Source: Shigella phage ESh10. Taken from it: a stretch of 38,729 nucleotides of DNA. Positions 28,497 to 34,704 of this stretch are shown one piece after another (position 1 is the first letter of the stretch; each line of letters begins with the position of its first letter). Both the position numbers and the translations under genes were made by a program. Location: sequence record ON528723; one strand, written 5' to 3'. The notes under the pieces were generated by a model. That model saw nothing but the letters and a program-made list of their open reading frames with translations. It ran no database searches and was not told the DNA's origin.

Positions 28497-30239
28497 ATGG
28501 CTACAACTATTAAGACCGTGATGACTTACCCGCTGGATGGTTCAACTACGGACTTTAATATTCCGTTCGAGTATCTGGCGCGTAAGTTCGTCCGAGTGAC
28601 CCTTATCGGTGTTGACCGAAAGGAACTCATCTTGAATAAAGACTATCGTTTTGCGACTAAGACCACAATCTCCACAACGAGAGCATTGGGGCCAGCGGAC
28701 GGTTATAACCTTATCGAGATTCGTCGGTACACCTCAGCGACTGAACGTCTGGTTGACTTTACGGATGGCTCAATCCTCCGTGCGTATGACCTGAACATCT
28801 CGCAGGTGCAGACCCTCCACGTTGCTGAGGAAGCGCGTGACCTTACCGCTGATACGATTGGCGTTAACAACGATGGTGACTTGGATGCTCGTGGTCGTCG
28901 TATCGTGAACGTTGCGGACGCTAAAGACCACGGTGATGCAATCAACTTAGGTCAAGTCCAGAAGTGGAACGACTCTGCGTTGAACTCTGCGAACCGCGCA
29001 CGGGCTGAGGCCGACCGTGCAACTGTGCGTGCTTCCGAGGCTGCTACCTCTGCGGGTAACTCTGCGAGTTCTGCAAGCCTGTCCCGTGATTGGGCTATCA
29101 AGGAATCGCCGGTGGAAGGAACCTTTAAGTCTTCCCGGTCGTATGCCCTTGACTCTATGGCGTACCGGGATGCGTCCAAGAGTTCTGCTGATGCTAGTGC
29201 TGCAAGTGCTGGTGCCGCGAAGACCTCTGAGATTAACACGAAGAACTCAGAAATCGCCGCGAAGACCTCTGAGACCAACGCGAAGGCCTCTGAGACCAAC
29301 GCTAAGGCTTCCGAGGAACGAGCCATTGAGGAAGCAAATAAGCTGGAGAACATGAATGGATTGGCTGGTGCCCTTGATAGGGTAGATGGAACAAATGTAT
29401 ACTGGAAAGGAAATATTAACGCTAATGGGCGGCTTTTCCTGACCAAAAACGGTTTTGATTGTGGTCAGTATCAACAGTTCTTTGGAGGCGAACCTAACCG
29501 TTACTCTGTCATGGAGTGGGGTGATAAGGACGGCTGGCATTTGTATTCTGAGAGGAAAACCGAAGGCGGTAGGCCAACGCTTAACGTGTTTGGTGATTTG
29601 AGCGTCGGTTTTGATATTCGGGCTGGTGCTACTCAATTTGCTAATCACATGTTTGTACACGACATGGTACAATACTGGCCCGGTGCTGGCAAGTTTGCTA
29701 ACCAGTTGTCTATCCCAGAAGCGCCATTTATCAAACAAGGGAGATACGAGGCCCCATCTGGTAACAGCTTATACGCCCCTATTGTTAAGGGAATCATACG
29801 GACGGCAGGTCACGGGTATAACACAGCGCTGTCCTTTGGTACTCTAACACAGGGTAACGGGTCGTTTGCTTCTGCGTGTATTCATGCGATTGGGGATAAC
29901 GGCACTTCTGGTTTCTGGGAATTTAACCCTAACAATAGGTCCTTCCGTAGTCAAGGTGATGGGCTCTTTGGCAACACTACTGTCTATCAGGATGGTAACA
30001 TCGGTGGCCCTACGTGGGGTGGCGACCTAGCGCAATGGCTCAGAGTAAATACGGTTAACCACATTGCTATGGGTGGAGTCAACCAGTCAACAGTGTGGAA
30101 TAGCTACGGTGTTTCTGATGGTGGCGGTAAGGTAGTAACTGGCGTTGTAAACTCTAACGCTGATGGTGCGATAGACTTTTGTCAGTGGCGTGTTATGCAA
30201 TTCGTTCGTAACGACGGTCAACGCTTTAATATTTACTGA
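28497..30239 (+). CDS. 17: tail fibre protein (T7 gp17-type N-terminal adaptor domain; heterologous-looking distal domain)
   Basis: 580 aa; N-terminus MATTIKTVMTYPLDGSTTDFNIPFEYLARKFV…DFTDGSILRAYDLN is the conserved tail-attachment domain; shaft with heptad-like repeats; distal ~250 aa Gly/Asn/Trp-rich. Confidence 0.9.
   Translation: MATTIKTVMTYPLDGSTTDFNIPFEYLARKFVRVTLIGVDRKELILNKDYRFATKTTISTTRALGPADGYNLIEIRRYTSATERLVDFTDGSILRAYDLNISQVQTLHVAEEARDLTADTIGVNNDGDLDARGRRIVNVADAKDHGDAINLGQVQKWNDSALNSANRARAEADRATVRASEAATSAGNSASSASLSRDWAIKESPVEGTFKSSRSYALDSMAYRDASKSSADASAASAGAAKTSEINTKNSEIAAKTSETNAKASETNAKASEERAIEEANKLENMNGLAGALDRVDGTNVYWKGNINANGRLFLTKNGFDCGQYQQFFGGEPNRYSVMEWGDKDGWHLYSERKTEGGRPTLNVFGDLSVGFDIRAGATQFANHMFVHDMVQYWPGAGKFANQLSIPEAPFIKQGRYEAPSGNSLYAPIVKGIIRTAGHGYNTALSFGTLTQGNGSFASACIHAIGDNGTSGFWEFNPNNRSFRSQGDGLFGNTTVYQDGNIGGPTWGGDLAQWLRVNTVNHIAMGGVNQSTVWNSYGVSDGGGKVVTGVVNSNADGAIDFCQWRVMQFVRNDGQRFNIY
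29217..29322 (+). repeat. approximately 21-bp imperfect tandem repeat (about 4-5 units) within gene 17
   Basis: gcgaagacctctgagaccaac-like units; protein-level repeat AKTSE(T/I)N. Confidence 0.6.
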
Positions 30240-30251
30240 TAGGAGGACGAT

Positions 30252-30776
30252 ATGGGAACTTTACGTCACTATAAGAATTTCGTAAATTACACTCCAGAAC
30301 GCACCAAAGAGAATGCAGACCTTCTAGACCACGGAGTCGGTTTCTCAAAGGATGAGAACGGGAATGACTGGTATGAACTTCGCAATACATTCCGTGAGGA
30401 TACATGGAAACTTGTCTACGCCAAAGATGGTTCAGTTATTCAATGTGAACAGGATGTTCAGGAGTTAGCCGTTCAGGGATCTGCTGGGGTGGTTGAGCTT
30501 GAGGAAATCCCTACTGAGTATTCTCGGTACAATATGGTTCAGTGGGGGTGGGACGGCGATAAGCTAACTTGGCATCCTCGGTACTTTGAGCACAAGAAGG
30601 CCCAGCTAATCTCTATGGCCTCCAAGAAGATTGAGCAGTATGCTGACTTTATAGCTCTTGGGGAGGAGGGATTAGAGGGTCTACTAAATGCGTGGCGAGC
30701 CTATCGCCTTGCTGTATATAAAGTAGACCTTAGTGTTCTACCTTTCTATGACTGGCCCGAGCAACCAGAAACCTAA
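30252..30776 (+). CDS. tail fibre assembly (Tfa-like) chaperone
   Basis: 174 aa; AGGAGG SD 13 nt after gene 17 stop; C-terminus …GLLNAWRAYRLAVYKVDLSVLPFYDWPEQPET matches the lambda Tfa / P2 G / Mu U C-terminal motif (LxAWxxYRxxLxxVDxSxxPxxxWPxxP). Confidence 0.7.
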   Translation: MGTLRHYKNFVNYTPERTKENADLLDHGVGFSKDENGNDWYELRNTFREDTWKLVYAKDGSVIQCEQDVQELAVQGSAGVVELEEIPTEYSRYNMVQWGWDGDKLTWHPRYFEHKKAQLISMASKKIEQYADFIALGEEGLEGLLNAWRAYRLAVYKVDLSVLPFYDWPEQPET

Positions 30777-34076: not shown

Positions 34077-34555
34077 ACCTAAAGATGCCCTGTAGTTCGT
34101 AATGGTCTTACAGGGTCTTCTGGTGTCTCCTAGCTATCCCTTCGGGATGCGCCTATGGTCTCACCTATGGTGTGGCCTTACCTAAAGTGGTTGCCTAAAG
34201 AGACCCTTTAAGAATTTACCACAAAAATCTGAATGGGTATCTCACAGTTCAAGAACCCAAAGTACCCCCATAGCCCTCCTAAAGCCACCTAAAGCCAGCC
34301 CTACCCTAGGGTTTAACCTTCGGTTAACCTTGGGTATCTCCTCAAGTGGCCTATAGGATAGCCTAAAGTGTTGCCTAAAGTCAATACCTAAAGAGGTGGA
34401 TGGCTTAAGGAGGACTTGAAGAGTGTCCTAGTGTACCAGTTCGATAGTACATCTCTATGTGTCCCTATCTGTTAGCCTCATAAAGTAAACCCTAAAGCCA
34501 CCACCTAAAGACCAGACCTAAAGCCACCACCTAAAGAGTAGCGCTATCTTAAAGA
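34077..34555 (+). repeat. array of dispersed CCTAAAG-type heptamer repeats typical of T7-family genome ends
   Basis: More than 12 copies of (A)CCTAAAG or one-mismatch variants, e.g. 34077, 34181, 34194 and the run ccctaaagccaccacctaaagaccagacctaaagccaccacctaaagag. Confidence 0.7.
34240..34470 (+). repeat. terminal repeat of the mature genome (single copy here; genome left end at 34240)
   Basis: tctcacagttcaagaacccaaagtaccccc at 34240 matches the extreme left end of T3/T7 DNA (TCTCA(C/T)AGT…); right boundary (~34466-34470, …tgtgtccct) placed by analogy and approximate. Confidence 0.5.
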
Positions 34556-34628
34556 CAACCAGACCGATAGACCAACTGTTAACCTGTAGTGATGCCCTGT
34601 AGTTGTCTATGGTGTCTATCGTCAATTC

Positions 34629-34650
34629 AATTACCCTCACTAAAGGGAAT
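34629..34650 (+). promoter_or_regulatory. T3-type phage RNAP promoter (left-end promoter, phiOL-like)
   Basis: aattaccctcactaaagggaat followed by AT-rich segment. Confidence 0.75.
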
Positions 34651-34704
34651 GAGGTTGATACTTAAAGAGGGAATAAAGATTTAATAAAAGATTTAAATTA
34701 ATGG

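Follow-up and report, generated by a model that had tools for sequence, protein, structure and literature searches.

A slowly evolving array of duplicated 21-bp units very probably encodes heptads of a coiled-coil rod in gp17, the predicted T7-type tail fibre of Shigella phage ESh10

The proximal region of the T7 tail fibre gp17 is described, from AFM, AlphaFold and MD, as a dynamic triple-helical coiled coil, and the rod is without a structure at atomic resolution. In the Klebsiella depolymerase DpK2 (PDB code 7LZJ), a trimeric tail spike, the N-terminal region that carries heptad units of the kind discussed below shows at low resolution as an extended triple helical bundle; the bundles of DpK2 and of a second Klebsiella depolymerase, Depo32 (7VYV), have been seen or inferred without an atomic model. 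Trimeric autotransporter adhesins (YadA_stalk) are likewise heptad-built trimeric fibre rods whose length changes in whole repeats. The heptad array in gp17 of Shigella phage ESh10 is a well-known kind of feature, as in such trimeric fibre rods, and a commonplace element from which many phage fibres are built. It lies in a window of 38,729 nucleotides, by which we mean the whole stretch of DNA that was analysed (record ON528723).

Judged by its sequence matches and its genomic neighbours, gp17 is a T7-type tail fibre of a Teetrevirus. Its first 155 residues match Phage_T7_tail (PF03906) with E 4.4e-58 and 195.9 bits, for a cutoff of 25.2, and residues 1-355, through the rod and the segment that follows it, align with residues 1-338 of T7 gp17 (PDB code 7boz, E 1.1e-120). 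The gene order runs from the gp16 internal virion protein to the fibre, the holin and the small terminase and is annotated likewise in Teetrevirus LL2; the closest isolates, with a nucleotide identity of 94-96% over gp17, are the Teetrevirus phages LL2, Seera and Leclercia 10164-302. With the gp17 of T7 and T3 it shares an orthologous gene in an orthologous position, a homologous N-terminal domain, a heptad-periodic rod and the conserved end-of-coil motif (ADKLENYNGLAGAIDKVDGTNVYWKG). The rods themselves differ. T7/T3-type shafts hold no AKTSETN units and carry in their place heptads of the FRNEAET or FRNQAEG type, rich in Phe, Asn and Glu; between anchors, their rod measures 133 residues to the 150 of ESh10 gp17, a difference of 17, and it is without ESPVEGTFKSS. 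The features that we delimited along the gene are collected in Table 1.

Table 1 Features delimited in and around the gp17 gene (window positions)
Feature	Coordinates	Strand	Extent and basis
gp17 tail fibre gene	28497..30239	+	580 aa, URY11077.1; PF03906, T7 gp17 PDB match
N-terminal tail-attachment domain	28497..28961	+	aa 1-155; Phage_T7_tail, PDB 8e4g/8dsp T7 gp17 N-terminal fragments
First helical shaft segment	28947..29099	+	aa 151-201; AlphaFold2 (AF2) helix, fragment residues 52-102
Non-helical break ESPVEGTFKSS	29100..29132	+	aa 202-212; AF2 secondary structure, gap versus T7 gp17
Second helical shaft segment, with the repeat inside	29133..29372	+	aa 213-292; AF2 helix, fragment residues 114-193
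Five 21-bp tandem units (five heptads)	29214..29318	+	aa 240-274 of gp17; Tandem Repeats Finder, register, lag-21, codon resampling
End-of-coil motif RAIEEANKLENMNGLAGA	29319..29372	+	conserved; invariant columns in the alignment of relatives
Mosaic junction	29365..29375		megablast matches end at gene position 873-875 (window ~29371)
Tail fibre assembly protein, lambda gpK/Tfa-type (Caudo_TAP)	30252..30776	+	PF02413, E 1.8e-10
Spurious antisense ORF, 164 aa	28952..29446	-	ORF list; 2 stops in Leclercia phage 10164-302
Spurious +1-frame ORF, 112 aa	29017..29355	+	ORF list; 1 stop each in Seera and the Leclercia phage

The distal half is a different module from that of T7, with a tip that, unlike the T7 tip, appears to depend on a chaperone. 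The T7-type C-terminal tip gp37_C (PF12604) had no match in gp17, and residues 519-572 (30051..30212) at its C-terminus weakly match the tail fibre S of phage Mu (8ju3, E 2.6e-4). The gene that follows encodes the Tfa-type protein of Table 1, the homologue of which in LL2 is annotated as a tail fiber assembly protein. Klebsiella relatives with a matching N-terminus and shaft have another distal half and another downstream gene.

Within the shaft, the strongest tandem repeat of the window was located by Tandem Repeats Finder at 29216-29306 (period 21, 4.3 copies, 77% matches, score 105), the second-best score in the window being 69. A repeat search of the window likewise found a 42-nt double unit four times from 29214, at a spacing of 21 nt. 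In the frame of gp17 the units read, in order, AAKTSEI, NTKNSEI, AAKTSET, NAKASET and NAKASEE, followed by RAIEEAN, KLENMNG and LAGAL. The seven-residue periodicity is thus present as five heptads in phase, and the register runs on through L283/M286 and A290/L293. The first-pass annotation had reported a 21-bp tandem repeat encoding a heptad-like repeat in an Ala/Ser-rich fibre shaft, and had pointed to 29150..29350 for a repeat-finder run. That run gave clear periodicity with the top score in the window, and both parts of the description are borne out; its span of 29217-29322 denotes the same array but sits 3 nt out of phase with the units at 29214..29318. Two weaker repetitive signals lie nearby: a 9-bp repeat TGCAAGTGC (2.2 copies, 29192..29211) encodes ASAASA directly upstream of the heptads, and a lag-57 signal near 29620 reflects a weak similarity between AGATQFAN and AGKFAN. 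One relative (P0017) has a 7-residue duplication of its own (SAGSASA) within its Ala/Ser tract.

The array is a genuine repeat at the DNA level, beyond the periodicity of the protein. Nucleotide identity at lag 21 across its 105 nt is 0.73, for a mean across the window of 0.27 (sd 0.055), and the array is the sole maximum of the window when all lags from 4 to 63 are scanned. We compared the units with a null in which the protein was left unchanged and synonymous codons were drawn 5000 times according to the usage of gp16 and gp17. The observed inter-unit nucleotide identity of 0.695 exceeded the null (0.574 +/- 0.029) in every resample (0/5000 as high), and the same codon was used at the same residue between units in 28 of 44 comparisons, for 18.5 +/- 3.7 under the null (P=0.014). 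Pairs of units share 11-19 of their 21 nt, units 1, 3 and 4 being the closest (16-19/21). Since the units resemble one another more than the resampled codons do, their likeness reflects a common ancestry of the DNA itself, through either duplication or gene conversion. It could be argued that the periodicity instead follows from the abundance of Ala and Ser, or from convergent selection acting on the protein, and owes nothing to shared DNA descent: the entire shaft is indeed biased in composition, and unlike heptads (FRNEAET in T7) occupy the equivalent place in other fibres. Such an origin is nonetheless highly improbable, as the lag-21 identity stands 8 sd over the window mean at this locus only and the fixed-protein resampling never reached the observed identity; at the level tested, the resampling rules out chance or composition as the source of the array.

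The structural setting of the array was modeled with AlphaFold2 as a monomer, using gp17 residues 100-360 and an alignment of 87 sequences (fragment numbers plus 99 give gp17 numbers). The prediction comprises two helices, of residues 151-201 and 213-292 (80 residues), split by ESPVEGTFKSS. In the first, Ala recurs at 3/4 spacing. The array falls within the second at pLDDT 95-98, with fragment residues 101-180 at 93-98 and values falling toward the end of the helix; the run, of a monomer with pTM 0.45, has no bearing on oligomeric packing. In the end-of-coil motif that closes the helix, residues A276, E279, A280, K282, L283 and N287 (fragment alignment columns A177, E180, A181, K183, L184 and N188) are invariant in the 87 relatives. 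The coiled-coil setting that had been predicted for the repeat agrees with its place in this long helix and with the triple-helical coiled coil described for the equivalent region of T7.

Conservation within the unit suggests how the heptads may face one another. Among 33 distinct arrays of the shaft type seen here, the entropy takes its lowest values at the Ala of position 2 (0.42 bit) and the Ser of position 5 (0.05 bit), and peaks at positions 4 and 7 (1.46 and 2.08 bit). Family-wide, 433 of 519 units have Ala at position 2, and positions 4 and 7 reach 2.6-2.7 bit. Ala and Ser would accordingly take the core positions a and d, leaving c and f exposed. Such a core is small, polar and atypical for a hydrophobic coiled coil; E279 also sits on d. 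By analogy with T7 gp17 and DpK2, the array would pack as a trimeric coiled coil, and we infer that it acts as a length spacer.

We consider it highly probable that the duplicated 21-bp units encode heptads of a coiled-coil rod that works as a spacer in gp17, and that they now evolve slowly. According to this model, duplicated codon blocks give rise to five consecutive heptads of an alpha-helical rod, the proximal half-fibre, in a homotrimeric gp17. The unit N-A-K-x-S-E-x would supply the Ala/Ser core of a slim triple coiled coil, with Lys, Glu and Asn flanking the core and the variable positions c and f turned to solvent. An alpha-helix rises by ~0.15 nm per residue. Each unit would then lengthen the rod by ~1 nm (7 x ~0.15 nm), and the array would make up ~5 nm of a total shaft length of roughly 20 nm; the shaft may set the distance between the tail-attachment domain and the receptor-binding distal half. 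The array would have arisen by a 21- or 42-bp duplication, and its present evolution would be slow, with rare gains, losses and reshuffles of whole units that keep the heptad phase. More generally, the array bears out that duplicated heptads make up the proximal rod of T7-like fibres, and that the length of this rod evolves in whole-heptad steps.

The helical shaft is interrupted by DWAIKESPVEGTFKSSRSYALDS (residues 198-222, 29088..29162), which is absent from T7 gp17 and resembles the segment WAQ..SPV.G.E(Y/F)SAYHYSRK. Many T7-like fibres have this segment with one heptad array on either side. The interruption might serve as a hinge.

The repeat had been proposed as a hotspot for slippage or unequal recombination that changes fibre length, and a comparison of copy number among related isolates had been suggested. 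Over long timescales the length of the shaft does change by whole units. In one lineage of ENA metagenomes (P0013 and P0171) the array is longer by a sixth unit, which duplicates AACGCGAAGACCTCTGAGACC perfectly. Among wider homologues the distance between the RGRRIV and KLxNxN anchors ranges from 77 to 175 residues and includes a unit-step series of 131/138/145 residues; in pairwise alignments of at least 60% identity, 1289 of 1700 shaft gaps (76%) are multiples of 7, these counts not being independent events. Among close relatives, copy number is nearly invariant: the five-unit form is found in 66 of 68 proteins of this shaft type, and all 26 isolate records that match the region at 93.7% identity or more show five units and equal query and subject spans. 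The array is therefore not a fast-changing locus, and the term hotspot overstates its behavior in close relatives.

The same data bear on the stronger proposal of a hypervariable, contingency-type locus, in which frequent slippage alters fibre length within populations and thereby tunes adsorption. In the window as in its relatives, units 3 and 4 differ by only 1-3 nt, the additional unit in the metagenomic lineage is exact, and one relative (P0155) has its units reshuffled with the length unchanged, as might be expected of such a locus. We regard the proposal as very unlikely all the same, in light of the constancy of the 68 proteins and the 26 isolate records. Each unit position has, moreover, its own signature of synonymous codons, kept in LL2, Seera, Leclercia 10164-302, Kpn-11mx and Emp27, which argues that the units are stably orthologous, and just two or three near-identical units make a poor substrate for slippage. 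The array also differs from a VNTR, as copy number was not polymorphic in the 26 isolate records and the units as a set (11-19/21 nt) are not near-identical. A scan of IMG/VR added only two further close relatives (L008 and L034), neither with indels. Change by whole units thus does take place, but at a slow pace. A single larger event is suggestive of unequal recombination between arrays: the 487-residue protein P0051 is shorter by 204 nt than P0030 and P0088, in the manner of an in-register fusion of two arrays. It comes from a single 2.9-kb Logan metagenomic contig and might instead reflect an error of assembly or a short form of older date.

Units of the AKTSETN type are common among the best 120 homologues, including many Studiervirinae fibres. 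Outside this group they occur in Klebsiella siphophages, mEp460 and Vibrio phages, and the cross-family matches are at the protein level only, at 70-80% over ~35 residues. In lambda, Stf (orf-401) has AAKTSETN, AAKSSETN and NARSSET at residues 203, 245, 273 and 280; there they stand dispersed between Ala/Ser heptads of other kinds and form no tight tandem array. L-shaped fibres of T5-like phages resemble the array over about 31-34 residues (73-81%); in phage bombadil, a repeat_region is annotated at this place. Both the lambda and the T5-like proteins are unrelated fibres of sipho-type tails, without a T7-type N-terminal domain. The depolymerases DpK2 and Depo32 carry array-type units at residues ~140-172 (E 3e-4), as does PDB entry 7VZ3 in the PDB sequence search, but the two depolymerases are tailspikes with a beta-helix enzyme domain. 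The likeness to trimeric autotransporter adhesins is one to a bacterial protein: the YadA_stalk match of gp17 (residues 135-172, 28899..29012; E 2e-4) is sub-threshold at 22.1 bits for a cutoff of 28.4, and falls upstream of the array, where the N-terminal domain passes into the coil.

General searches with the repeat were negative. Scanned against Pfam with E up to 10, neither the array nor its relatives whose repeats are perfect gave a significant model or a tail-fibre-repeat family. The shaft alone (residues 166-300) retrieved nothing at E<=1e-5 from the protein database, probably on account of its biased composition, and a full-text literature search with the string KTSETN found no paper. 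Near-identical T7-like fibre proteins (P0039, P0121, P0149 and P0163) stand in the database under the names of Brucella melitensis, Enterobacter hormaechei and Staphylococcus epidermidis; their contigs of ~38-39 kb are probably contaminating or carried-over phage DNA within bacterial assemblies.

Similarity at the nucleotide level breaks sharply at two places in the gene. About 20 records of Klebsiella, Pantoea and E. coli phages match by megablast at 92-98% identity as far as gene position 875, with no match beyond it; this junction (~29371) directly follows the invariant end-of-coil motif, ~50 nt downstream of the array. Another set of megablast matches stops at gene position ~497 (~28993), where the coil starts. 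These two breaks mark the shaft as an exchangeable cassette bounded by mosaic junctions. A junction this close to the 3' end of the array is in keeping with the idea that the AKTSETN cassette, beyond being a structural spacer, is mainly a patch of homology for swapping receptor-binding modules among unrelated phages. The units shared with lambda Stf, T5-like L-shaped fibres, Klebsiella siphophages, mEp460 and Vibrio phages would fit this idea, as would the resemblance of P0051 to a fusion of two arrays. The junction itself, however, falls in the conserved KLENMNxLAGA, outside the array; the blastn matches listed are T7-like phages of Autographiviridae size, one 44.9-kb record excepted; the resemblance across families is confined to protein; and P0051 is a single metagenomic contig, open to the other explanations given above. 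We therefore hold a main role as homology patch to be quite unlikely. It is also unlikely that AKTSETN is a horizontally shared pan-phage linker for the exchange of receptor-binding modules, with a five-unit length kept under stabilising selection by virion geometry. For phage engineering, the array and the invariant KLENMNxLAGA just after it mark a natural in-register splice site, at which receptor-binding domains could be exchanged or fibre length tuned.

Open reading frames in other frames cover the array as well. The first-pass annotation had ascribed the two spurious frames of Table 1 to the repeat. Both exist and both are spurious, with stops in relatives, but no more than 105 of their 339-495 nt come from the array, and the remainder reflects the wider Ala/Ser-rich composition; a third frame (29247..29738, minus strand, 163 aa) also runs over the array. 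The consensus unit is stop-free in five of six frames, so that open alternative frames are to be expected. The frames are long (112-164 aa), and lambda has an antisense orf206b annotated within the equivalent Ala/Ser-rich part of stf, which might lead one to take either of the two for a real embedded gene served by the repeat. That is extremely improbable, as the frames are broken in relatives of 94-95% identity (two stops in the minus frame and one in the plus frame of Leclercia phage 10164-302, one in the plus frame of Seera), the unit is by itself open in nearly all frames, and the frame of gp17 shows strong homology throughout. Because of these stop codons we reject embedded genes in the alternative frames. 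The lambda frame (hypothetical orf206b; NC_001416, L037, 20147..20767, minus strand) lies antisense to the AKTSETN-containing part of stf orf-401, and is probably a composition-driven antisense ORF, as at the gp17 array, and equally spurious. Ala/Ser-rich fibre repeats thus call for caution in annotation, as they yield long false ORFs on both strands.

Two observations concern the record as a whole. The gp17 gene starts at 28.5 kb here and at 33.4 kb in LL2, and the record may be permuted by about 4.9 kb with respect to the T7 convention. Many short repeats of the CCTAAAG type occupy 34150..34660, with Tandem Repeats Finder arrays at 34272-34297 and 34491-34536; we take them to resemble the arrays that flank the terminal repeat of T7 and T3. 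After these repeats, at ~34631, lies ATTACCCTCACTAAAGGGAA, which looks like a promoter of the T3 type.
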